DNA of 55,411 bases, the filler included, from Dimargaris cristalligena (Eukaryota), in the NCBI GenBank assembly GCA_003614675.1. It is 2 parts of 2 records of this genome, joined end to end, with 100 filler letters (N's around TTAATTAATTAA, not from the genome) between each part and the next. Parts side by side here need not be neighbours in the genome. Positions count along the whole stretch, not along the records: positions 27,761 to 55,411 come from ML002515.1; 1 more part is not named here. One strand, given 5' to 3'. How positions within the stretch are numbered: the first letter of the stretch is position 1; every line of letters begins with the position of its first letter. Shown in pieces: positions 17,707 to 53,981 of this stretch. The notes under the pieces were generated by a model. It had not been told where the DNA came from. It did no database searches and saw only the letters and a program-made list of their open reading frames with translations. The translations under genes were made by a program, and so were the position numbers.

Positions 17707-20700
17707 TTATAGTTTGGCCACCTGGATTTTAGTGGCCGCGACGGGCTGATTTGCCGAAAGTAGGGCCGTCTGATTCGGCATGCGAGTCACTTCATAGCGG
17801 TTAATCTGGTCCCAGTCCCCCGCCTCGTGCCACTTATGCAGGTTCATTATGGGTTTTAAGACCTGCTGGTAACGCCCCACGACAGGCGACATGTGGTTGG
17901 CTGGTTCGTGGAGGGCACCCTTCATGAGACGCTCGTACACATCGCCGCGGTAGTTGCCCAACGCGGATTTAAGCCGGTAATCCGGGATAGCCCAGGCATC
18001 GGCTAGTGCGACGGCATTGGGGCGGAGGTGGGTGAGGAGTTCCCGCTCGCGTTGGCGGATCCAACTGGCCTGGTGCGGGGCTAGCAGGCCCATTTCGAGA
18101 CAATCGGTTAGACCCCCATCGTTCACCAAGGTATGGAGGGCCAGGAGCTGCCACAGTTGGGCGAGCGGGCGGCGTATTTCGGGCGTCGCGGTGGTAGAGA
18201 CGTCCATGGTCTTGACAAAGTGGTACAGGATGGTGTACTGGCCGTGGGCCTGGCTGATGCGGCGCATGTCCACCAGGGACTGGTTCCAAGTTTGATGATC
18301 CTGGTCCATGGCGCGCTGCAGCTGGGCCACGAGAGCGGCCGAACGGTGGCCAAAGAGGGTCAAGAGAAGGTTGAGGTCGTCCAACTGGGCCGTTGAGGTG
18401 ATGACCTGCGGTGGCTCCGTGGCGCCCGCCACTCCTCTACAACTGACCCATTCGAAGTAGGCCTGCAAATAGGCCTGGGTGGAGTTGTTACCAGCCACTG
18501 CCAATGAGTCTTTATTGCCGCGGCCTTGCGAAGAAGGGGGACAGCGGGTTGCCGCCATTTGACGACGGACCGCCTTTAATAAATAACGCGCAACCTGTTG
18601 GGACAGAATAAAATTGTCCCCCTCCCAGGTGGTGTTGGGCAGAGTGTCGCAATAGAAATCCGTGAGGCCCGAAAAGGCGGAATACCCATGACCCCCCATG
18701 GCCCGACGGCAGACTTCAATACTATCCACCAGCATGTCCGTTGACAGGGCCTTTAGGCCCGAACTGGTTGCGTGGAGTTCGGCCAAGGTGGACACGTCGT
18801 TGGCGGCTAAGCGTTGGACAAAATCATTGTACTGGTCCCGCATGGCCAGGCCCGTGAAATGCAGCGCGTAGGCCTGGGCCAGGGCGGGTAGGAGGCGGTA
18901 CTGTACCATGGAGTAGTTGAGGACGGACGTTTCACCGGGTTCGCTTCCGGGGGACGGGGGGGATTCGGGTTTAGTGGTGGGTCCTTGGGTCTCGTTCTTG
19001 TCGGCTGCGAATTGACGCCGGGTCGCGCAGTAGCGAATAGCAATGGTGGCCGCCTTGGCTAGATTAATGGCGCTGTTTCGGACAATATACTGGCGCACGT
19101 AGACCATGGTTCCGTAGGAGAGCTTGTCATTCGGGGGCCGGACGTACTTGCCCTGAGGAGTGACGCGAGCGAAACGCTCCAGCATGTGGTCCCGGGGAAT
19201 GTGGTAGTGTTGGAAGCGCATAAAACCATTATCCACCGAGTTAAACCTGAATAGGGCACAGTTAAAAAACGCCAGTATTATATATATATATTTGGTAAAA
19301 TATGTAGAGTTAGGGAGCTGTTAGTGAATATAGCCATTGGTACCCCAACTAAGGGAAGAGTATGCGGGAATACAAGTACCATGGTTGGATAAGCCCTGGT
19401 ACACTTTATCGACTGTGGCCTATGTATAGGCGGATAATGCACTTGGAAGAGTGGATTACCCCTGGCCAACATATCTAATAAATACTACCGGAATTAAATG
19501 ACTTACCCGAATTTGGGACCGATATCACCCACCTGCACACCAGGGAAGGGCTGGTGGTCCTCCAGTGAACGAATGGGCACCACAAAAGGGTGCGGACCAA
19601 AATCGGTATCCCTCACCAGCAGACGGGCCATCACAATGGCGTGGGTGGCCGCCAGACCCAGTCCACCGGACCACCATTTAGTGGACGTCAGATTGGGCGA
19701 GTGCAGCTCAAACTCCTCCGTTTCGGGGAGGAAAGTGGCCGTAGTCTCCAGTCCCTGGACGTTGCTACCGTGGCCTAGTTCGGTTTGGGCGTAACAGCCG
19801 ATGATTTCGTAGTTCATGGCGGGTTCCAGGAACCTTTGCTGTTGCTCGGGGGTGCCCTGGGCCCGCAAGCAAGGGATAAACATTGCTTCATGGAGATTCA
19901 GCTAGGGGTGGTGGTACAGGGAGACCGGAGGGGGAGAGGGTAGTGCAATATAATATACATTGGGATGAATAAAGTTGAAAATTGACGGGGTAATCGGGTT
20001 CTGTAGTTTAGAAAGGTACTTTATACGGTTGGTGCCCCTTTGGACTTGCAGAACTGGAGGTCGTGTCGTAATAGGAAACGGCAGGCATAAAGGGGTTTTG
20101 GGGCTGTTACTGCGCTACCATGGGCCTAAAGGGTTGATTGTACTATTTGTATTTACCCATGCCCGCAGTCCTGGGAAAAATAAATATCCCTACCATTGAC
20201 GAAATATCCACCAGTTTAGAACAGGCCTCAAACTCGTCAAACGACCAGTTCAGATGTCTGCAGGTAAGGGGTACATAGTTCCGATTTAGCCATAGTATAC
20301 GGTGAGGGTGATCGAAACCAGTGAGCCGTGTGCCATTTTAATGCGTCTTTCACTCCCGCGTAATGCTTACTAGAGAAAACTTGTGAAGTGGGGGAGGTGG
20401 GGGGTGGAGGAGTACATCTACTGACCAAGAAACATCACCCCTTATTATACCCCGCTCCAGTTGGTTTACATGGAAAATAGGGGCAATCAAGTTGGCCGAC
20501 TAGCTGGCTATGGTGGAGATATTACCCCTTCCCCCATCGAGTTGCTAAATATGGTTGAGATGAGCGGGAATACCGGGTAGTATACTTACCTGCGAAGGGC
20601 CACCTGGCGGGCTCCCATGAGCAGGGCTTTGCGCAGGAGTTCTTTGCGACTCATATAAGGGACCTGGGACTGATCGAAAATGGGATCTGATTCCAGGATA

Positions 20701-29030: not shown

Positions 29031-31154
29031 TTATATAATTGCAGACATATTCCGCGTGGACTCGGGCGAATACCCTCGTTCATCAATGGAATGCGAGGGG
29101 GATACTATCGCTCGGGGTTTACCCAACGGGAATCCCGGTGATTTAAGCCGACTGGGGGTACAGTTGGTCCGGCAGAGCGGACAGCGGGCACATTTCTTGG
29201 TGAGCCACGGATCGATACAGGTCGCGTGAAAGGCATGTCGACAGGGTAACCGACGCAGCAATTCGCCTGTTTGAAAATCGTCCGAGCAAACCCCACACAT
29301 GGGCGGGCCTTTCAAATCGCGGTTCATAATATCCTCGCGGATCTTTTGGTGGATCCGGCGGTTCGGACCTGAGCAGCCCAGACGAACCTTACTTGGTTTA
29401 GGGTGACCGCTGACAATGGTCATCGACCTTGACGTTAGTGAGGGGGTCGGGATAATGATGGGGGCGGGAAGCCGCTTGCCGGTTTTAGTGGTCCGCAGAG
29501 TCATGGGGATATCGGGGTGGGATTCCGCCAGGATTGGGTCGTTTTGCTGTTTTTGGGCTAGCATGCGGGCCATGATGGGGGGGACGGGAGGGGCCGTTTT
29601 CTCATCAAAGGTAAATGTCCCCGCCTGCGCAATCGTCGCTTGGGAGCTCACCGCGGATATGGGCGACACGATATTGTCACCCTCTTCGTTCTCGTCCTCT
29701 CCTTCGCCTCGGCTGGAGGAATGGTTGATATTGACGGTCGAGCAGGAAAGCATGGACATCTTCTCAAACGCCCCTGCCCTCGACATATTGGCCATTGACC
29801 GGCTTCCGGCTAAGGAACAGTCAGCAGAGCGGGGGGTCGCCGTGTCGCTGTCATCGTCATCACTATCTTCGTCGCTGGAGGTACGCAGCTGTGACGCTGC
29901 ATCCTGGTACTTGCGAATAGCTATGCGCGTCGACATGGGGAAGGCGCGGTAATCGGAGCTCGAATAAGTTAGAGTCGTTAGTAGGTGTAGCTGTTCGGTC
30001 TGGAGTGGGGGAGCATTCTGGGACCTAACGGGGCGACACATGAGCAGCTGAATCTTTTGTTGGCGGCGATTCTCCTGATTCTTGTCTTTAAGGGCGGCCA
30101 TACGGCGACGATTTCGGCGGTTACGAAAGCACATGAAACCAATGATACCTAGAATGCAGGCGTGCAGTGAGTCGGAATTAACAAGTCCCAGGGACAACTG
30201 TTAGGTGTCAGTGAATCTATTATTGTGTGGGGGGGGGTATAATATGACACGAATAAAGGGGATATCTTAGCTGCCCAAGTGACGAGCTAAAGTCCAAATA
30301 ATCGACGAATGGCCCCCGTACCAGCTGTATCAGATTGGCAATAAAGGTATACAGTCCGGTTATATCAACAGCAAAGCCCTAAGCATCTGAATGAATTATC
30401 TATACCTACCGAAAATAGCCAAGACGAGCAAGGGGATGGTGATGCCCAACACCAGACCCATATCGACACTACCGCTAGCGACGACGGTATTGTTGGACAT
30501 GATCCGCACCCCGGACATGTAGAGGCGCACCCAAATACGCACGTAGTACTTCTTGTCGGGGTCCTCCTGGATACTGTTGAAGCTGTTCAGACTCGGGAGG
30601 GCGCTGGTTTTGTTGGAGGCCGAGTTGGCGGGGTCCCGCTCGAAGACGGCGATCTGGTTCCGAATCTGGGAGCCTTGGGTAAAGGACAGGAGGAATATAG
30701 GGGCGTCCAGGTCGGTGGTGAAACTCGACAGGAATTCGATGGGGGTGCTCTCGGACATGGGGTAAATGACGATGGCCCTGTGCCCGAGCTGCTTCATGGC
30801 CGGCAACAGGGCCAGCACTTGGGAACGATTGTAGGCGCCTATGAGGGGAATGTGCTCCACCTGGGGGACGAGGTTGGGAAGCTCGCCCTCGGTGTAGGGG
30901 TACACGACACCGCCATAGGGGCCCACGGCGTTCTTGGGAATGAGGGAGGAGTAGACGGTGTTTTGGGTGGTAATGGTGGTGGTGGAGATGTTATTGGCGA
31001 CTTGGAAGCTGTCGGGGTCGAGCAGAACGGTGTCGTCGGCCAGAGCAAAGGTTGCCTCAATCTGGCCGGCGCTCTGGGCGACCCTCACCAGCCAGGCTGA
31101 TAGACTGAGGAGGAAAACCGCCACGGCGGGGCATGGCGATAGCAGCCCCTGCAT
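29031..31154 (-). CDS. PA-TM-RING-H2 E3 ubiquitin ligase (RNF13/RNF167/RMR-like), 2 exons, about 620 aa
   Basis: Exons 31154-30410 and 30148-29031 (phase-1 GT-AG intron). Signal peptide, PA-like luminal region, [25 protein letters not shown] followed by [13 protein letters not shown]2 CGVC-x14[10 protein letters not shown]10-CPLC. Confidence 0.9.
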
Positions 31155-32649
31155 AATGAGAGTGGCAGGGTTATTTGCGACTTATGATAGTCTCGTTAGG
31201 GCGAGTTATTATGAAGAAGGGGATTGGGTGGCTGGGAAAGAAACTAAGTCCCATCAATAACCTAGGCAACGAAACTAAACTGGTATTTAAACCGACGAAA
31301 CTAATCTAATAATACAACTAGCTATGAACAAATTAAACCGGCGAATGTAAAATACAGTCAGGAACAGTGCGCCCGACTGTTGATTTATATGGGCAGCGAC
31401 CAGGGAGCCAAAGGGTGCATGAACGCAAAAAGAGCAAACAATAGGAGCAACGTGCGTAATAAGCCCGGTATTCAGAAGGGATCCTTGAAAAGGGCTGTCT
31501 TGTCTGTCCAGGTTGAGCCCAGGAACAGTATGCTACTGTGAACAGAGTCGTGAAAAAAAGCAACCGGATAAGGTCGATCCTTTAGTAAGATGTCCCGCCC
31601 AACAGTGGCAGTAGCCTCTAGCCGCTGGCCCATGGGTGTAAACAGCAACTACGTACACGTTAATTAAAGGCTACAGGCAGCGTCGCCCACCTGAGCAACA
31701 GGCAGGTTAATTTGCCTGGCTTCCTAAATTAGCCACTGCAATAGTGTTGAACACTGGCATTGTAGCTCGGAATAATGTGGAGGAACAGCGTAGATCCTGG
31801 ACAACCCTTGCCTTTCCTTTCGAATCCTGGCATAAGCAGCCGAGTGGGTAGATTAACGCTCGGCTCCACATTCCTTGTCGGATGGGCCTCATTTCGTTAA
31901 AAGAATGGGCCAATCTTGACACAATTATCTTCACTGTATTACCAAGCAAGAATAGTTCTAGAATGCCTGCTTGACTGCCACCGAAATATCCTTCGAGTAG
32001 GATTTCCCCGTCCCTTTCTTATCATGCCGGGCCATCTGTAGATATAAGCCGGTAAAATATGCATCCTCCGCGCTGTGCGCCATCTCCGTGGCTCAAATAT
32101 GGGTCTATAAGGGATACTAATCTCTAAGTTAGCCCAATTCGTATATAAATACGCTGTTGAATCCATGTATTGAACAGGCTGAACCAATACTAAGAATCAC
32201 CCAATATATGTGGTGGGATATATATTTCAAGGGTAGATATATTTTAGCCCAACTCATCCCATGCCAGAGAGTATAATCCCTCCATATCCAATCAAACTCA
32301 CAAGCAGGCTAATGGTAACTACGTCACGTGACTAAGTTATTTTTTCTGCCATCCTCTATTATGTATACACTCTGGCTGATGAGCCCGTTTGGAAAAAAAA
32401 CTTTAAAAGGGCATCTTCCCAGCTGACATATTACTAATCCTTGTCTCTTCTGTTAATCATCACATCCATGTTCGCTGCATTTACATACGGTATAGTCTCG
32501 TTTTGGCCTTGGGCCCAATTTTAATATGTTTGTATATTGTGTTTAATAAACATGTTTTTACTCTTCAGGTCCCCCGACCAACCGCCGTAAGTTAATGTTA
32601 GATACGCATGGGTTTGTGTGTTTATGTAGTATTTATATCGTTTTTTAAT

Positions 32650-32967
32650 ACTGGATATTCGGCTTGGTCTGGATGAATAAGTCGGCCTGATGGGCATATC
32701 ACACCTCCCTGGTGGTCGACTTATCCGCTCTTATTCATCCGAATCCCGCACTTCGTGTAAGTTCTGTCACGCCCCGGGCGACTGGCGAAAGTCGGTCGCT
32801 TGGACCTCCACGTGATCAGGTACCAAGAAGAACGTGCTAAATTAAACACCGGCCCACTAGGTTTGGGCACTTGTGCCTGGATCTAGCATGGCTGGGTTGG
32901 ACGGTGTCCTGTCATTCCGGGGGACTTGATTGAAATCCCGCGAGTGCTTACCGTTCAGCCAACATTC
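32650..32967 (+). ncRNA. Candidate large intron-encoded box H/ACA RNA (snR30/U17-like architecture)
   Basis: Several 11-13 bp stems with G-U pairs and GAAA/CUUG/GGCA tetraloops; H-box-like AAATTA 32839-32844 right after a long hairpin; ACA 32962-32964 one nt after the terminal stem; lies between donor GTAAGT 32587 and acceptor AG 32988-32989. Confidence 0.65.
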
Positions 32968-33215
32968 CCTCTCTTACTTGCCTTAATAGGGCGATTTACC
33001 CTTAACCAGCCAGTTGTCATTCCACTAATACGTGTGTACAGTTGGCACTTTCTTCGATTCAGATTATAGTTATATCACATGTCCCAATAAATAAAATGTT
33101 TTTACAATGCAAATGAATGGTGGCTAATTAATATATGAGTCTATAAATTAAGTGCGACGTGTTTATTCGATCAAGTGGGGAATGAGAGGGAGATTGGTAT
33201 AATGTGAATTGTAAA

Positions 33216-36200
33216 CTAACTGGTGGTGTCCATCTCGCCTTCCTCGTGGCTATCACTAGGTGACTCAGGTTGCTCGCTTTTACTACGCTTTTTCTCTGGA
33301 GCCGCTGAATCAACGGGTGGCGGAGTAAGCGGGCGTTTGCCGTCGGGCTGTCGGCCATCCGTTTTCTTTTCGTGTTTTTCCTGAGGTGTAGTAGAGGTCA
33401 GTGGATAAAACATTGCAACAAAATAACAGATGAATTAGCGACACTTAGTTAAGAAAGGGTTGGGCCGAGTAGCCATATACAGGCTGTATTAAAAGCGTGT
33501 TCGCCTTTTCGGTATAAATACACCGACATAATATCCGGTACTTACCTTCAGATACTCCTGCAGCTCATCAAACAGCTCCTTTTTCATCGCGTCGTCGTCT
33601 AGAAGCATAAAGTCGCGGTCGGTTTGGATAAGGGGCAGCACCTATTGCAACAAACCAAACAAAAGTGATATAATAGTTGAATATACATAAATATGCAAAT
33701 AACACGACGTTAGACACCAAGGCCCTCGCGCTAAACCATGCCATAAGTAGAAAGGTAACACATACCAAATAACATTCATAGATGTTCCAAGAAAATGACT
33801 TACCTCTTCCCAGGTTTGCCCATATTTAATATGTGGTCGGAAATGCTTCAGGAAACGGTAGAAGTCGTCCTTCTTGGCCTTGAGTCTCCGTTCAACTTTC
33901 TTGCGTTTTGCCTCGGCCTCTTTGACCTCCCGTGCGTGCATCTAGAGGATTGGATTGTATGGCATGATATTGGTCCGGGAAAATGGTAATGCATGGTGGA
34001 TACCCTAGGCTAGCAAAGCGAGTGTTATTACCATGGCGTAATTTAATTTAATTCTGGAGAACGCCAGGGTTAAATATTTGAATATGTTTAGTGAAGTTCT
34101 GTATGGTGTACGTTAACAAACACTGCCTTACCTTTTCATAGACCAACTTAATATCGTGGTCGTTACAGCCAAGACCAGCTAGAAAGTCGCCGGCCTGGGC
34201 ATTAAATTGTGCATACTGGGTGTCGCTGGTAATGTTCACATTCCGATCCTAAGAAGGGCCATAACCAAACAAATCCAAAATAGTCAACATCAAATAGAGA
34301 GTGGTTTAGCCCGATTGCTGATATCCAGTCTACAGATTGAATAAATGACAGAGTACAGCCATATTCCAGTAGAAATAGACCTAGTAGCGTCGTCCACAGA
34401 AGGGTGTATATCTGCAACAATGTTGCCAAATGTCTTACCTTTAAGTGTTCGCGGACTTGTCTGCGGCATTTGGTAATCAAGTCCCGGTGTTGCTCAACCT
34501 CGTCCCAGAATAACTCAAGGGGGGTGGAACCAGGTTGGCCTAACAGTTCGGTGTAGCGGGGATCGGATGCCACTTGGGCGTAGAAATCGGGCCAGATCGA
34601 ATCTAGGGTGATGCCGTGTTTGGCCTTGTATTCCGCAAGAAGTTCCTGTAGATGAATGGGCCGAATCATATAAATTAGAGATACCGCCGGTATTAGTGAA
34701 AACCCTCAACCATTAGTATATAAAGCTAGACGTACCATATCTAGTCAGTGAATACCCAATGGTAACGACCCAATTAGAGCTATAGATGGGCCATAAAATA
34801 ACGACCATCGCACTTACGCGGAAGGCATCTCGGGCCTGGCGGGCTTTGCGGTATATCGCCGCCTCTTGCTTATCTCTCCATTCGGTAAACTCCGCCTGCA
34901 GTTGTTCATTGTGGGTCTCGAAGGCCTCCAACAGATCCGCCGAAGCAATACTGCTAATGAGATCCGCCACTGTAGGGGGTTCGCGGGGGTCTGACTCCGA
35001 ATGCTTGCCTGATTCATGAGGGGGCCAGGGATAACCGAGTAGAGCCATGACGGTACTCGCCTCCAGCTTGCTCTGGGTCAGGATCCCGCGCACTTCATTC
35101 CACGGAGTATTGATGGTTATATCGGAACAGGCGTGGAGCAGTTCAGCCACACGGGCCACGCGTTCCTTCCGCAGGGTCGCTTGGTCGTTGCGGTACGTCT
35201 GCATCGCCTCCCGATAAAACTCGTCAAACAACTGGCGCCGACGCCGACTGTCCGACACCGCCCGGAACCGCGGATCCGTGTCCCGCAGGCGGTCCTCCGC
35301 ATCGTAGTAACTGCCCAGAGCCTCCAGGGCCGTGGTGGGATACGCCTGTTCCAGCATTATCTTGAATTGCGCCTCCGCATTCTGGGCCTGTTGCCGGTGC
35401 TCTTCGCGTTCTTCAGCGCGCTTAATATGAAGAAACTCCTCAAATTCCGTTTTGCGTTCGGCCACGGTTTTGAGGGCCCGGTAGTGGGGGTGGTTGATGA
35501 TGGCCCGCATGGCCTGTTCCCAGGACCAGCGGCCTTGGACACCGGCGTGGCGGAGTAGGTCGTGGAAGGCCTGGGTTTTAGCTTCCATGGTGGTGAACGA
35601 GGCAGCGGGGACACGGGCGGATTCGGCCAGCCGGTCCTGGGTGGATAAGGCCGGAGCAGCGGTAGCATTCACATTAGCAGTAGTCGTGGTAGGTGTCGCA
35701 GGAGCCGAGGGAGGGCCGGCGGTAGTCGGCAAAGGAAGGGCGGCCACGACCGGTGGCAACGTCGAGGTCCGTGCACCTTCGACCTTGGTGGTGGAAGGTG
35801 TGGGTGGTGTAGCGGAGATAGATGGGGGTCTATTAGGGGCCGACGAGGACTTTTCTCGCTTTTCGGGAACTGCGGGGGACGCTAACGACGACGCCGGCAC
35901 AACCGGGGCGACTGCTGCCTGGGTATTAGAGGCGGGATCAGCGGAGGTGGTCAATTCACGGGGTTGCTCCCAGGTGGTTTGTTTGGTGATGGTATTATAG
36001 TAGTAGCTCTTGCCATTGGCGGCTACGTAGGTCTTCCATGCGGTGCGGGCTAGGGCCCGTTCTTCGGGGGTTTTGAGCTCGTCGGGCTTGTTCCAGACCG
36101 TCTGTTTTGTAGATGGATTGTAAAAGTATACCTTGCCCTCCGCGGTTTTGTATTCCTGCCAAATAGTTGCCGGGGCCGTCTGGAGAGTATAGGTAGAGGG

Positions 36201-36411
36201 AGTAGGCGGGGAGTTTAAGTTAGGGAAATGTGCGCATGAAGTGGGTATGAACAGGGTGGCAATGGAGCTTGTACACGGAAACACGCGTAGGGAATAGACA
36301 GCGAGGCTGCCTCGGGAGTTCCCAATAGGACATTCGGGAAGTGGTTCTGCGGAGGTCCAAGTAACTAACCTCTTTCGGAGCGGGGCTAATGGGCGCCGTG
36401 TGGGCAGCCAT
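33216..36411 (-). CDS. PRP40: Pre-mRNA-processing factor 40 (U1 snRNP; WW-WW-FF repeats), 7 exons, about 708 aa
   Basis: Exons 36411-36370, 36179-34818, 34645-34439, 34248-34132, 33941-33804, 33641-33546, 33380-33216, all phase-0 GT-AG. WW domains WQEYKTAEGKVYFYN..TVWNKP and WKTY..GKSYYYN..TTWEQP; FF domains; LLGQPGSTPLELFWD motif; C-terminal EEGE. Confidence 0.93.
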
Positions 36412-36973
36412 GGCTGGTAGGTATTCGTGAAGCTATTAAGGGCTGGCAAACTACTTAAGTAATTGCATGGACCGATTGGCCAAGAAACCCAATTGGACTG
36501 AAATGGCTTGGAATCTGCTCGACGGCAACAGTATAATAGGAAGCAAGGGTACAAGTTAACGAAAGCCACTTTCTTTAGACGCTGGGTTCTCCGTCCGATT
36601 GTAAGGGCCACCAACTCAGTACTATGGAGGACTCGGGAGGGTGCTGAGTCGGTCATTCAATTTGCGACGGTGAATTCCACAAACCTGGATTCCTTTTTTT
36701 GGCCTGTGGCACATTTTTGTGTTTTTTTACTTCGAAAGAAATAGTAGGACTTGCAGCTCCTTTTTTGCTTCTATTTAACACAGCCTACATCTACTATCAC
36801 TGCTCTTCATTGCCTTTTAACACCCACATTCCCCCTTCCACTTCGACTTTGACTATTTCGAGATTCCGGCCATACTCTCTTCACCAAACTGCCCTACCCA
36901 GACAAAGTGCTACCACCGCCACCGCACTCCACAAACACTCGCACTCACACACAGGTGTCTCTCGCTTGGAGCA

Positions 36974-38065
36974 ATGAGACACGGTCGACGAAGCAAGCCG
37001 GAGCCCACTCCATTGCCCAGCCTTCCAGACTTTTCGGCTCCTGGAGCGGTGGGTAGGTGGTTGGCCCAGCGTCGCAGGAACTATCCCACTCAGGAGACTA
37101 TCCAAAAACAGCAGGAAGCGGCTGAGGCCGTACGAGCCAAAGAACTTCATGTGAAAGGGGCCAGGCAACTGTCAGCCCTGTGCGATTACGGGAGCGACAG
37201 CGAGAACGACAGCGATAGCCAAAGCCATAGTGAACCAGCGACGGCACCAGGTCCTGAAGCCTCCGGAAATAACCACGATTCACTGCAGCCGTCGGTCGCG
37301 GTATCGCCAGCTACCAGCTTAGAAACTCCCGGGACACAGGGACGCATAGCGGTTCGGTTTCAACGACTTAGTGAACCGCACAATGGTAGTTCGGACCCCG
37401 AGTCCGAGTCCGATGGCGATGTAGACCCCATTCGGGATGCTGTTTCGTCCAAGGCTCCGCCCCAGCTTCCACCAACGGTGGATACCAACGCTGACGGTGC
37501 ACCAGAGACTGCTGCTGTACCATCAAGGCAGTCGACAGGTCGCCGGAAGGCATCGGAATCCCCCCCAAGAAGTACCAGCCAGTGGTCAAATAAAGCTCGC
37601 ATAGGCCGCGACCACAATAATCGACGAGTAAGTGAACTATTACCACAAGCCATAACTATGGTTTAAGTTTATGTGGAGGACCAGGGAGATACGACTGGCG
37701 TCTCCTTATCAAACTAGGGTGTGATCAAATGGTTCCCTCAGTACCCAAAGATTGTACGATTTTCGTGAATACCCAGACAGTATTTTCTAACTCAAGAGCC
37801 CCCTCCTCCCTCTTTATACCCATATTTTTTTACACCCAATCCCCAATACCTACTGCCTATCACTTGGAAGAATCAAAACAATGCCGGTAATACCAAACAT
37901 ATACCCCGTAGTCAGAGTCTTTTCGACCGCCTCTTGGCTAAAGATGTGCGCCGGGATCAAATTCGCGTCTTACAATGCCTACAATACATCGTCGACCACG
38001 ATTTCCTAGGAATCCCTCGGGAATCGGCCCAGCTGGTCCAAAAGCCACTGATCCGGGAAATATAA
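36974..38065 (+). CDS. NUFIP1: Rsa1/NUFIP1-like box C/D snoRNP assembly factor, 2 exons, about 282 aa
   Basis: RWLAQRRRNYPT resembles the W..ER++NYPT PEP motif. Donor GTAAGT 37628; in-frame exon 37871-38065 encodes SLFDRLLAKDVRRDQIRVLQCLQYIVDHDFLG, like the NUFIP1 C-terminal helix; the acceptor is a less common AAG. Confidence 0.75.
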
Positions 38066-38798
38066 TCCAGTCGATATTGTTGTTAATATATTTATTAAAA
38101 TTTCGATCAACTTCCCGCTACCATTTCTCCAGGGATGCCATTTACTACTAGGCACAGTTGTAATGAGCCGACTCCTTATTGCCTGGTGTGTATATAACCA
38201 CCCCACTTGGGGGAAGCTATCGATTATTACCCCCTTGCCATTAATCTTACATAGCCAGGAGATGCAAGATTGGCACCAATTATAATTAATAGCAAAACTC
38301 GGGGGAACCCGGTGTTTATTATCCGATGAAAGGCGTGCTTAGGCACTAGATGGCTTTATCAAATGACCAGAACCACCACAAATGCAGACAGACTCGACTA
38401 TCTTTCTACTCTATTGGGTTTCGTTTTTAATACTGAACCAATACCACGTTATGCTTTTAGAATTTTTCAGTTGTGGTCAGATGTCGGATTGTCCTCCGTA
38501 TCCCGTTAGATCTGCGAAGATAAGCCCCGATCAGTTGATTTAGTACTGAGGTGGGAGACCACTTGGGAATAGTCAATGCTACAACTTTTTCATTTGTATT
38601 TTGATGACGACTCCCCCGAATGGCATGGTGTATAAGGATTAGGGGTAAAATGCATTACAGTCTAGCTTTAGATATTCCTCCACTTGCTCCCCAGCAATTC
38701 CAGTATTGCCATCTTTTTATTATTTGGGCCAGTTGTCTTTATTGATAGCGTAAGTATAATATCTATTAGGAGCTTACTATATTTAATAGGGTCAACTG

Positions 38799-49894: not shown

Positions 49895-49956
49895 GGTGAG
49901 TTGAACGGGAAGACTAGTCGAGAAGTAGGAGGGTGAGGGCGGCTACTTTTTTTAAG

Positions 49957-49977
49957 ATATATATATATATATATATA
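49957..49977. repeat. (AT)n microsatellite
   Basis: About 10 AT units directly upstream of the AMMECR1 start; a similar tract lies near 51739-51757 in CAP2 intron 1. Confidence 0.9.
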
Positions 49978-50730
49978 CGTATTTTAAAGAATAAATCCTG
50001 CTAAGCAGCGGAATGGAAGGACGGGGTTAGCTCGAGAATTGAAAAGAAATGCAAGCCGAGTCAATTCAAGCGAGCCGAGCTCGAAGGTAGCCGACGACTA
50101 CGGAAATGCGTGGGTGACTAATTGATTGGCTGGCGGTGGGATATAAGGGTAATGCAGGTGGGAAACACCATCATTTGGTATTTTTCCTCCTGTCCGTCCT
50201 GGGAAGGCCCATCATCCATTCCACCTGCCTTAACAATACGACAGTGGTATCCAACGCCACCCAAAGGCAGGTGCTTGCTTCTCAAGGAGGAGGGGGTTTG
50301 CCGGCTGGGCTTGGGCAGCTCACCATTCCATTAGCTGGTAGGGAAGGAGAAAATGCCAGGTCAGGTGTAAGGTTACGCGGCTACATTGCCGCATTGTGTC
50401 CTCCACCTCGTATAGTCAAATGTGCAAAGGCCAGTTTCAGGTACAGCACGTTCACCTGGAACCGGAAGTTTAATCCGAGTATCTAAAGACCGGCGTGGGC
50501 CATTTTAAATCTGGGTGGATATCCCGAAGTGGATGAAACATCTATCGACTGAGCTACCTGTGAATTTATTACAAATAGAGCCCCAATCGGCACCAACTAT
50601 ACCCGGGGGGGGGTTTGTAGGAAAAGGGTGGGAAGAAGGGGGTACGCATACCATGCCGAACCGCCGATTCCTAAAAGAGGAAGCCAGGGTGGTTAAAACC
50701 CTGTCAAGGCAGATGAAGTGTGGTTGGTCA

Positions 50731-51931: not shown

Positions 51932-53981
51932 GTTGGAGTCGGTAGAGATGGATGGAGGGGAATGGGGAGAGTGGGCGAAGAGTCGGACAATGCGGGAAAG
52001 CACTTGAGAGCAACACTGGAGAAAGGGTGGGGGATTAGGGGAAAACTGAAGCTTCCCCTCCTTCCTTCAAAGGGCCCCCCGCCCTCTCTGTCGCCTGGCT
52101 CCAAGGTCTTGGCGTAGGCTATTCAGTATAGGTTTAGCGGACCATATAGGTAAATTTTTGAATCCCCGTAGTGCTTTGGTAAATTACCTACTCTCGTGTG
52201 GGACAGAGGAGTGGGGCCTTCCGCCTGCCGCCTACTACGCGGGGAGGGGCTCGGACTGTGTTATTATAGCCTTCATTATATCCCGGACGTGGGGCAGTGA
52301 GAGTCTATGGAATTAACGGGATGTATATACTATACTATACTAATTTACTAATACGCCATTTCCTCATCATCGACTTTCCCCCCAAAGTCAGCAATACGAC
52401 TCTGGCGTTTTATATACAGGGATGATATCCTGAGGAATATAGAGGAAAAGGAGAGAGGCATATGCGTGAGTAGCTGTGATGGGAGTGTGAATGTAGATGA
52501 AAGCGGCCGCTGTGCTGTTCACCATTCCCTACCAAGAACAGCGAGGCCAGTAAGCGATGCGCCTTTTTCATCTACCTATTGTGGCAATAGAGGGGGATCC
52601 CACTGACAGCGAGTGAATGGCATTCCTCGTCCGCATCCAATGATAATATAGATGCCTATTGGCGTGGAGGAGGCTGGGATTTACCTCCTTCTAGCCTATG
52701 GCGGAGTTATTAGTGGGCCTTTTCACTGGACGAGCCGCCTAATCCCCCCGTACTCTACTTGGCATACTGACAAAAACCAAATGTCCTACATTATTTTATC
52801 TACTGAAGGTCAGAAGTGGTTAGCAATCCAAGTTTTGTTGTGAATGGAAGCAGAAATGGTGATAATCTACTTATTTGCCTTACTCTCGCCCATCACCTTA
52901 CTTAATAACCACCGCCTCGTTGCGTTGAAACCGTTCAATTCTCAGATATCACAGGCTGCTAGTCCTCAAACATACCTAGCTGATATTCGCACAATACTGT
53001 TCTTGCGGCGCCGTTTTGTTGTTGTTGTTACTGTTGCTGTTATAGCGCTGGTAGGGGTGGTGGCGATGATGATGGCCTTCTTGATCGCCCCAAAGAACCT
53101 ACATAAATTCGGAATGGGTGGCTCCCCACTGGTTGACCACTCTTAGTAGTAAAACCCGGGACTTATTCTAGTTCTGAGTTCACACCTCTCAGCAGCTCGC
53201 TGTCGGACGACCTTGTAGGGAAGAAAAGAGGCGATAGTAAAAACGGCCGGGGCTAATAGGGAGGGCAAATTAAAATAGACAAGGGGACAATGGTCCAAGG
53301 CAGGGAGAGACAATGCGGTGCTGACCAACCGCCGTGCGTGTTTCCTCGTTCCCTCCGCACCACTGATGACAATGTGTCCTCTGGGTCTATTGTATTGTGC
53401 GCCTTTTTTTAGGGCACGAATGGGGTGGTGGGCATATAGCATATAGCATTGACACACAAACACCTATTTTTAACCCCCCTGTCAGTGTATGCGCATTGCT
53501 GTGGGGCTGGTTTATAAACTAATGTTGCCCCGCTTCCCTCTGACTAGACGCTTTTTAGTCCCGCAAGGCTCTCTGACTCTCTTCTCTCTTTCTCTTCTCA
53601 CTTGGCCTCTTATTACTTTTCTTACTTAGCCTTTTCCTATTTTTCGGCTCGTTCCTGGCTCCGTTTTACAAGCTTTTCCTGCACGTTCGTTCGTTCGTTC
53701 GTTTAACCGCCGGCGCCCCTGTCGCTATCGGCTGCTCTCTGGTGCTGCTGATCCACTCCGGACCCCTTCTTATAACCCCCTCCCTCTTCACTACCCCTTC
53801 CTTATCAATGTCTGCTTAGCGCTCCTAGCCTAGTCTAGCCTACCCTCCCTACTTTCTTTTGAGCTCACCATCCTTTCATTGTTAGAGTATCCTATCATCC
53901 CACTCATTCTCACGTCTGCATAGTCCGTGTGTCTTTTCCCCTTTCCTTACTTCTTCCTCTCCCCTTTTTCATCCCCCTGCC

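Follow-up and report, generated by a model that had tools for sequence, protein, structure and literature searches.

Does an unannotated segment of the Dimargaris cristalligena (Zoopagomycota) nuclear genome, lying between two minus-strand genes, encode a structured RNA and, if so, to which class would this RNA belong? A preliminary description of the locus had seen there a highly structured RNA of about 300 nt within the intron of an apparent non-coding host gene, and had proposed either a divergent snR30/U17 or a novel long H/ACA RNA. No mention of a Dimargaris snoRNA was found in the literature searched, and the accessible portion of a report on the fungal snoRNAome names snR30 once and holds nothing on Zoopagomycota (PMC5824354). 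Here we analyse the locus within its window, i.e., the whole stretch of DNA under study (55 kb). On balance, we favour the reading that positions 32663-32967 of the plus strand encode a box H/ACA class RNA of about 305 nt, probably an orphan H/ACA-class snoRNA of this fungus.

The segment stands out by its folding. Among 994 composition-corrected 330-nt windows covering both strands of the 55 kb, 32663-32967 (+) ranks first for excess structure: its plus strand reaches an MFE of -126.4 kcal/mol (z -3.77), a value that none of 100 shuffled sequences equals, whereas the minus strand (z -0.63) is equalled by 26 of 100. The strands also differ when the four hairpins are taken one by one, with z of -3.22 (+) and -2.07 (-) for H1, -2.52 and +1.19 for H2, -3.17 and -0.88 for H3, and -3.28 and -0.40 for H4, whose plus-strand fold was matched by 0 of 200 shuffles; each of the four reaches significance on the plus strand only. 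G-U pairs amount to 20 of the 112 predicted pairs, and it is because of them that the minus strand folds at the level of its shuffles; such a share fits pairing at the RNA rather than at the DNA level, as was argued when the locus was initially read as a plus-strand RNA structure and not as DNA inverted repeats. Elsewhere in the window, the plus strand of 49920-50500 also folds well, an (AT)n run contributing to its z of -3.77.

The predicted fold comprises a branched 5′ domain, an A-rich hinge, an internal hairpin and a 3′ hairpin followed by an ACA (Table 1).

Table 1. Predicted and putative features of the candidate locus, in window coordinates
Feature	Position	Strand	Description
Predicted mature RNA	32663..32967	+	~305 nt, spanning closing-stem base to ACA+3; ends predicted from the helix map
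Branched 5′ domain	32663..32827	+	closing stem 32663-68/32822-27 around H1, mini-hairpin and H2
Hairpin H1	32670..32741	+	12-bp outer stem UGGAUGAAUAAG/CUUAUUCAUCCG, inner helices, UCCCU loop
Mini-hairpin GCAC-UUC-GUGU	32748..32758	+	4 bp
Hairpin H2	32763..32820	+	9-bp lower part, 2/7-nt internal loop, 13-bp upper stem, GAAA cap
Hinge, A-rich	32826..32844	+	two ANANNA (H-box) candidates: AGAAGA 32826-31, AAAUUA 32839-44
Internal hairpin H3	32850..32894	+	5-bp base, 13-bp stem (4 G-U pairs), CUUG cap
3′ hairpin H4	32895..32960	+	12-bp basal stem, internal loop, upper stem CAUUC/GAGUG, GGGA/UCCC tip
ACA box candidate	32962..32964	+	1 nt past the 12-bp basal stem
Putative intron	32587..32989	+	403 nt, GTAAGT ... 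TAATAG; motif call
Putative mini-exon	32569..32586	+	18 nt, between TTCAG and GTAAGT; motif call
TATA-like TATTTATA	32630..32637	+	~33 nt upstream of the first stem
Two overlapping AATAAA signals	33086..33095	+	motif

Most of the elements announced in the preliminary description are recovered in this fold: the pair GGATGAATAAG/CTTATTCATCC (32671-81/32730-40, 100% complementary), the 13-bp stems with a GAAA loop (32774-86/32791-803) and with a CUUG loop (32857-69/32874-86), the H-box-like AAATTA of the hinge, and the terminal stem (32895-906/32949-60) followed by A-ACA-TTC. Two others had to be redrawn. The GGCA-tetraloop hairpin appears neither in the MFE nor in the centroid structure, where CACC/GGUG and a UCCCU loop form the top of H1, and the long hairpin placed at 32748-32837 is resolved into the mini-hairpin (32748-58) and H2 (32763-32820), both inside the closing stem. 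Mean pair probability is 0.64 for this closing stem, and H2, whose upper stem includes four G-U pairs, has a pair probability of 0.99.

Assignment to the H/ACA class is suggested by the position of the boxes. In members of this class, the ACA comes directly after the 3′-terminal hairpin, 3 nt short of the mature 3′ end. In H/ACA RNAs, 14-16 nt separate the box from the top of the loop (PMC7601244); here, the H4 upper stem's base is 15 nt away from the ACA, and this ACA, one of only three in the 336-nt stretch examined, falls 1 nt beyond the last stem. Furthermore, both AGAAGA and AAAUUA are placed in the hinge that follows the 5′ domain, as expected of an H box, so that two of the three ANANNA motifs of the 336-nt stretch are found within about 22 nt, with weak A-U pairing possible for both in the MFE (mean pair probability 0.53). 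Of the 1447 ACA sites that the two strands of the window contain, 9 (0.6%) pass a simple 3′-hairpin descriptor, set up after the site had been seen, and the most stable of these 9 is 32962 (+). Box motifs of this kind are short, 3 nt for ACA and 6 nt for ANANNA.

By its hairpin-hinge-hairpin-tail order, its ANANNA hinge, its ACA adjoining the last stem and its 15-nt distance, the candidate resembles two-hairpin guide H/ACA snoRNAs. It departs from them in being about twice the usual length (the yeast mean is ~200 nt; PMC7601244), in having four hairpins, and in the shape of its putative pockets. Indeed, the 5′ domain presents no pseudouridylation-type pocket 14-16 nt from either H-box candidate, the H2 loop being 22 nt away from AGAAGA, and the internal loop of H4, made of UCCUGU (32907-12) and CU (32947-48), is small and lopsided in the MFE (6 nt on one side, 2 nt on the other) and does not look like a typical guide pocket. 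A further difference is the absence of an above-chance rRNA target, or of bipartite pocket-target complementarity, in non-cognate fungal rDNA: in five such loci no pseudouridylation target exceeded those of 200 shuffled guides, the best sites being G-U rich and 9-11 bp long, when shuffled guides commonly reach 10-13 bp. Likewise, antisense 9-mers to rRNA conserved in at least 8 loci numbered 6, vs. 4, 0 and 6 in controls. Orphan H/ACA RNAs exist, and a missing target therefore leaves membership of the class possible; as no target was identified, the RNA is classed as an orphan.

The strand-specific fold and the placing of the boxes are shown by these results; for the RNA predicted at 32663-32967, we infer expression, ends, protein binding and function. 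H/ACA snoRNAs associate with Cbf5, Nop10, Nhp2 and Gar1 and accumulate stably. Since no hairpin but the 3′ one places a loop 14-16 nt from its box, a target RNA would probably dock at the H4 loop, which stem fraying could extend, and the 5′ domain and the internal hairpin would be pocket-less scaffolds, as in snR30/U17. Such a molecule might act as a guide, at a site that is lineage-specific or outside rRNA, or else be a processing or chaperone snoRNA.

Comparison with known families was made through Rfam, which contains models of both SNORA73 and snR30. Covariance models gave no family at the gathering score or at E<=10 for the 901-, 336- and 136-nt stretches searched, the sole rows returned being noise, one a miRNA at 13 bits and the other an archaeal C/D match at 11 bits. 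Thus, none of the families singled out beforehand for this comparison (snR30, SNORA73, scaRNAs, telomerase, RNase MRP/P) matched even at E<=10. RNase P and RNase MRP RNA, in which CR-I and CR-V elements form P4, were set aside on this result, the CR-I-like GAAAGUC being the tetraloop of a perfect hairpin; SRP and snRNA readings were likewise discarded for want of an Rfam match. The H/ACA domain of vertebrate telomerase RNA and the scaRNAs are long composite RNAs ending in hairpin-H-hairpin-ACA, and the candidate recalls this composite layout by its motifs only. An H/ACA-type telomerase RNA has a template of about 1.5 telomere repeats, a pseudoknot, and a CAB/BIO box in the loop of its 3′ hairpin. 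The region 32560-33110 holds neither a UGAG (CAB box) nor a telomerase template string (CCCTAA, CCTAAC or TAACCC), and the telomerase reading is not favoured on these grounds together with the Rfam result. No telomeric array is present in the window, and nothing on telomerase RNA in early-diverging fungi figured among the literature matches listed.

The comparison with snR30/U17 calls for a closer weighing. In the canonical snR30 pattern, the 3′ hairpin carries AUAUUCCUN ... AAACCAU-N7-ACA, and the 7-nt spacing between m2 and ACA is invariant. Several traits would agree with the candidate being the Dimargaris orthologue of this essential, 18S-processing RNA, with its 18S-docking motifs rewritten alongside the ES6 of this organism and ACGGUGUCCUG and UUACCGU as docking strands. 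Its layout resembles that of human U17, with two stems before the H box, an enlarged, pocket-less 5′ part, a small internal hairpin that separates the H box from the 3′ hairpin (PMC7601244), and only one loop lying at the canonical distance from ACA; its 305 nt are close to the 325 nt of S. pombe U17 (PMC7601244); it is possibly intronic in a non-coding host, as human U17 is; and in T. brucei, where m2 is the same as in other species, m1 is altered with compensation in 18S. TTACCGT does end 7 nt before the ACA, as had been pointed out, and it would lie exactly there if the basal stem had 6 bp and were followed by 1 nt; in the predicted fold, this spacing is possible only when the basal stem is opened along its inner 6 bp. 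Against this stand the motifs that define snR30/U17, which lie in the 3′-hairpin loop, m1 AUAUUCCUA on its 5′ strand and m2 AAACCAU on its 3′ strand, the latter identical in 14 of the 14 species of the review table (PMC7601244) as well as in T. brucei, with no exception so far in the range from ciliates and trypanosomes to humans. The m2 position (UUACCGU, 32948-54) is identical at 4 of 7 nucleotides and the m1 position, on the basal side (ACGGUGUCC), at 2 of 9 by manual count, in agreement with the preliminary description, which had judged both non-canonical; an AUUCC does occur at 32914-18, though inside the upper stem of H4. Moreover, the m2-equivalent is bound in a helix (mean pair probability 0.96) whose opening would cost 12.1 kcal/mol. 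Pairing with rm1 and rm2 of a canonical fungal ES6 (locus L028), used in place of that of D. cristalligena, gave -7.7 and -4.4 kcal/mol, values that 18% and 76% of shuffled strands attained. Canonical rm1/rm2 occur in 26 of 36 fungal rDNA loci with enough 18S, which would make their complete rewriting in Dimargaris unusual; in one further locus rm2 is 1 base off, and the remaining nine comprise L049, with a divergent ES6, and eight without a recognisable 18S anchor. Together with the absence of SNORA73/snR30 families at E<=10, this makes the rewritten orthologue very improbable in our view. We give even less credit to its more specific form, a Dimargaritales snR30/U17 with m1/m2 and ES6 rewritten, in which an extended basal stem (ACGGU/ACCGU) would hold the docking strands shut up to the moment of strand exchange with the pre-rRNA. 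A canonical AAACCAT-N5-9-ACA is found nowhere in the window, which says little because the window covers only 55 kb. Of the two options originally put forward, the long H/ACA RNA is thus supported by the strand-specific fold, the 15-nt ACA distance, the two ANANNA motifs and the leading place among the nine ACA sites, while the snR30/U17 option is not supported, with m1/m2 absent, Rfam silent and ES6 pairing at the shuffle level. Were it nevertheless the snR30 of this lineage, the apparent invariance of m2/rm2 would be broken, and the snR30-ES6 docking model could be tested on a natural case of co-variation.

Two other explanations bear on the same body of evidence. The candidate could be a functional structured RNA of another kind, either an unknown ncRNA class or a cis-acting structure of an intron or pre-RNA, in which ACA and ANANNA are coincidental. 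The strength of the fold set against the brevity of the class-defining motifs, the poor guide pocket that H4 offers in the MFE, the null target searches, the lack of an Rfam match, and the generic, stabilising nature of long perfect stems under GAAA and CUUG tetraloops, would all be in keeping with it. Nevertheless, coincidence would have to account for a descriptor that so few ACA sites of the window pass, with the candidate at their head, and for a hinge that holds two of three ANANNA. In addition, RNase P/MRP, SRP, snRNA, telomerase and 7SK would each be expected to match Rfam at least weakly and none do, nor does the region contain UGAG or a CCCTAA-type template; we regard this explanation as unlikely. 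Less probable again is a non-functional origin, be it a transposon or foldback relic or a set of inverted repeats that came to cluster by chance in intergenic DNA. The search for copies covered 55 kb, and other parts of the window fold well, such as 49920-50500 (+) with its equal z of -3.77. However, DNA inverted repeats should fold alike on both strands, and here the minus strand stays at the shuffle level; four independent adjacent hairpins each show z <= -2.5; and neither terminal repeats at the locus nor a further copy within the 55-kb window were found.

An H/ACA-class RNA thus remains our preferred reading, and it would constitute a new gene in an unannotated stretch, unusually long, elaborate and unrecognised by Rfam; if an orphan, it would be one of the few long H/ACA RNAs that have roles other than guiding. 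Relatives sought by synteny, through the neighbouring WW/FF protein, among metagenome contigs were not found.

As for its genomic context, the reading as an intron of a host gene is drawn from motifs. The GTAAGT and YAG flanking the candidate resemble those of true introns in the window, as in the acyl-CoA oxidase gene (introns of 255-330 nt, GTAAGT...YAG), and ACA+3 sits 22 nt upstream of the putative 3′ splice site; GTAWGT occurs in the window at the chance rate (43 observed vs. 48 expected). The AATAAA pair would possibly mark the 3′ end of the host transcript. Only one plus-strand ATG-ORF of at least 40 aa exists in 32260-33110 (41 aa, 32690-32815), and it falls within the predicted RNA. 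That introns of non-coding host genes can carry H/ACA RNAs is established, U17HG being an example (PMC7601244). With this and other non-coding snoRNA hosts, the locus would share tiny non-coding exons, an intronic snoRNA, and its release by splicing and trimming, while its exon-intron structure, unlike that of U17HG, is read from motifs alone. The RNA could then arise when the 403-nt intron is spliced out of a short non-coding host transcript and next trimmed by exonucleases; or it may be transcribed from its own promoter, a role that the TATA-like TATTTATA could fulfil if transcription is independent.

Two further elements of the neighbourhood were considered and rejected. In the putative upstream intron, a C/D-like candidate (UGAUGA 32378-83, CUGA 32423-26; fold z -2.10) has its boxes without an adjacent terminal stem, and its two guide regions gave no consistent target in five fungal rDNA loci, the matches being locus-variable and G-U rich; it lends the host gene no support. 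The other, at 31690-31875 (+) and ending in ...CUCCACAUUC, has its ACA within a stem and a hinge without ANANNA, and folds with z -2.09. Finally, an internal GUAAGU is present at 32757-62, at the 3′ side of the mini-hairpin 32748-58.

The stretch 32663-32967(+), about 305 nt, is a genuine, strand-specific and highly structured element. Folded on the + strand, 32640-32975 reaches a minimum free energy (MFE) of -126.4 kcal/mol, with a z (stability against shuffled sequences) of -3.77 and none of 100 dinucleotide shuffles as good, whereas its reverse complement comes to -102.8 kcal/mol (z -0.63), matched by 26 of 100 shuffles. The four hairpins, H1 to H4 from 5' to 3', folded singly, show z values of -3.22, -2.52, -3.17 and -3.28 on the + strand and of -2.07, +1.19, -0.88 and -0.40 on the - strand. 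When the whole window was scanned in 330-nt windows on both strands (n = 994), regressing MFE on composition, excess stability was greatest in the one starting at 32671(+) (residual z -3.08; its - strand, -0.25). This asymmetry is explained by the 20 G-U pairs among the 112 predicted, in line with the preliminary description, which had taken repeated G-U pairing as a sign of + strand RNA structure. In the predicted fold, such pairs argue for selection that would act at the RNA level, and an origin as non-functional repeats is distinctly unlikely.

The sequence elements first reported were all recovered in place, and the predicted fold is summarized in the table below together with the flanking genes. 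A proposed hairpin with a GGCA tetraloop is absent from both the MFE and the centroid structures; at 32748-32837 hairpins do exist, although not as the single long hairpin drawn before, but as a mini-hairpin plus H2 within the closing stem.

Flanking genes and predicted anatomy of the candidate RNA
Feature	Position	Strand	Description
Gene, 5' end borders gap	30396-31154	-	one flank of candidate RNA
Closing stem	32663-68/32822-27	+	encloses H1, 4-bp mini-hairpin and H2
H1	32670-32741	+	outer stem 12 bp
H2	32763-32820	+	upper stem 13 bp, four G-U pairs, GAAA loop; pair probability 0.99
A-rich hinge, 3' of 5' domain	AGAAGA 32826, AAAUUA 32839	+	
H3	32850-32894	+	13-bp stem, four G-U pairs, CUUG loop
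H4	32895-32960	+	12-bp basal stem; internal loop UCCUGU/CU; upper stem CAUUC/GAGUG
ACA box candidate	32962-64	+	single A after H4, then ACA, then UUC
WW/FF-domain gene, 3' end borders gap	exons to about 33216-36656	-	other flank

The order of elements is hairpin domain, ANANNA hinge, hairpin and ACA, and this predicted box geometry agrees with that of an H/ACA snoRNA ~305 nt long. ACA occurs three times in the 336-nt stretch, once just past the last stem, and ANANNA also three times, twice within the hinge. A 3'-hairpin descriptor (spanning hairpin, basal stem of at least 5 bp, internal loop of at least 6 nt, 14-16 nt to ACA) is passed by 9 of the 1447 ACA sites on both strands of the window, 32962(+) being the most stable among them; having been made after the site was seen, it gauges rarity and cannot count as an unbiased test. 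In the 5' domain, no loop lies at the correct spacing from either H-box candidate, so H4 alone could dock a target. A further structured segment is found 0.8 kb upstream at 31690-31875(+); its z is -2.09, matched by 5 of 200 shuffles, and it ends in ...GCUCGGCUCCACAUUCC, sharing ACAUUC with the candidate RNA; it was rejected as an H/ACA RNA, its ACA being inside a stem and its hinge having no ANANNA.

The preliminary description had proposed either a divergent snR30/U17 or a novel long H/ACA RNA; the H/ACA layout is supported, but the snR30/U17 assignment is not. In excerpts of a review (PMC7601244) and of Fayet-Lebaron et al. 2009 (PMC2664660), the 18S-docking motifs of snR30/U17, m1 (AUAUUCCUA) and m2 (AAACCAU), occupy opposing strands at the 3'-hairpin loop's basal side, in an element invariably 7 nt upstream of ACA, and pair with rm1 (GGAAU[A]) and rm2 of 18S ES6; m2 does not vary even in T. 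brucei, whose m1 is altered with compensation. The review excerpts also describe human U17 (two stems 5' of the H box, then a small internal hairpin ahead of the 3' hairpin) and a 325-nt S. pombe U17, with which the general architecture and the ~305 nt of the candidate RNA agree, whereas its m1/m2 motifs disagree. UUACCGU (TTACCGT in DNA) does end 7 nt before ACA, at the m2 spacing noticed earlier, and, as also recognized then, is not canonical: it matches m2 at 4 of 7 positions, and ACGGUGUCC stands on the basal 5' strand. Within H4, ACGGUG and UACCGU pair together with a mean probability of 0.96, and an snR30-type loop could be forced open there only at a cost of 12.1 kcal/mol, the energy rising from -30.4 to -18.3. 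Rfam gave no match to the candidate at E<=10, even for 136- and 336-nt stretches, the sole rows for the region being an miRNA at 13 bits and an archaeal C/D match at 11 bits. Against canonical, non-Dimargaris fungal ES6, the H4 loop strands pair at shuffle level (-7.7 kcal/mol, 18% of shuffles as good; -4.4 kcal/mol, 76%). A rewired snR30/U17, whose docking pair would have co-evolved with Dimargaris 18S, requires two strongly conserved rRNA motifs to be altered at most of their positions and is, despite its layout and size, very improbable.

Searches for other partners were null. Bipartite pseudouridylation targets of the H4 loop in five complete fungal rDNA units, allowing stem fraying, reached at best 9-11 bp with many G-U, while 10-13 bp were common for shuffled H4 guides in the same scan. 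Perfect antisense rRNA 9-mers kept in at least 8 of 106 loci numbered six (controls: sense 4, reversed 0, complement-only 6), and neither a CCCTAA-type template nor a UGAG box occurs in 32560-33110. By these tests the candidate RNA is an orphan. An orphan H/ACA-class snoRNA is the reading that we favour, with moderate confidence; a functional RNA structure of another kind seems rather unlikely.

Fungal rDNA was collected from metagenome contigs by the ITS1-F primer, and ES6 was counted in the 36 loci whose 18S side spans at least 1200 nt. GGAAT[A/G]...TGGTTT is present in 26, and one further locus is one base off in rm2; the other nine comprise L049, with a divergent ES6, and eight without a recognisable anchor. 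The rm2 context is non-canonical in two metagenome 18S sequences, L017 (TTGGTTC) and L049 (TTGTTTC, with ES6 diverging upstream of it), indicating that among environmental fungi the docking site of snR30 shows some variation.

The candidate RNA may be intron-borne or have its own promoter, which from sequence motifs are equal possibilities. It would be released from a putative 403-nt intron of a host transcript (GTAAGT 32587 to TAATAG ending at 32989, with TTCAG|32569 upstream and two AATAAA at 33086-95 downstream), a size that is not odd since real introns within the window measure 255-330 nt (GTAAGT...YAG); GTAWGT is in no excess over chance in the window. Alternatively, the TATA-like TATTTATA ~33 nt 5' of the first stem would make independent transcription equally possible, as for yeast snR30 according to excerpts of PMC7601244. 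C/D-like boxes at 32378-32426(+) (UGAUGA...CUGA, ~40 nt apart; fold z -2.10), in a putative upstream intron, were rejected, having no adjacent terminal stem; with no consistent rRNA target among 5 fungal rDNA loci, they add no support for a multi-snoRNA host. Within the candidate RNA, GUAAGU (32757-32762(+)) and GCUUAC (32946-32951(+), H4 loop region) are mutually complementary, the latter being similar to the U1 snRNA 5' end that binds 5' splice sites; for a 6-mer, this is within chance.

The locus lies inside a ~2-kb gap without long ORFs, and the sole + strand ATG-ORF of at least 40 aa in 32260-33110 is one of 41 aa within the structured region. The window belongs to the nuclear DNA of Dimargaris cristalligena or of a closely allied strain. 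An acyl-CoA oxidase ORF at 17707-19236(-) has 96% identity to the NCBI protein of that species, its next relatives being D. verticillata and D. xerosporica (55%). At 36974-37666(+), 4 kb 3' of the candidate RNA, is an ORF bearing a NUFIP1 domain (E 3.2e-06); NUFIP1/Rsa1 is a box C/D snoRNP assembly factor, and this closeness is probably a coincidence. The stretch 52340-52820(-) ranks second for over-structure in the scan (folding z -2.51); it was rejected as snR30, having AUAUUCCU but no AAACCAU...ACA. Another, 49920-50500(+), of 581 nt (z -3.77, 0 of 100 shuffles as good), contains an (AT)n tract, with an open frame at 50118-50486 overlapping the stretch. At 38469-38587(+), a complete 5S rRNA gene (84.2 bits, E 1.5e-16) stands isolated among protein-coding genes, which indicates that 5S is dispersed here, without linkage to rDNA.
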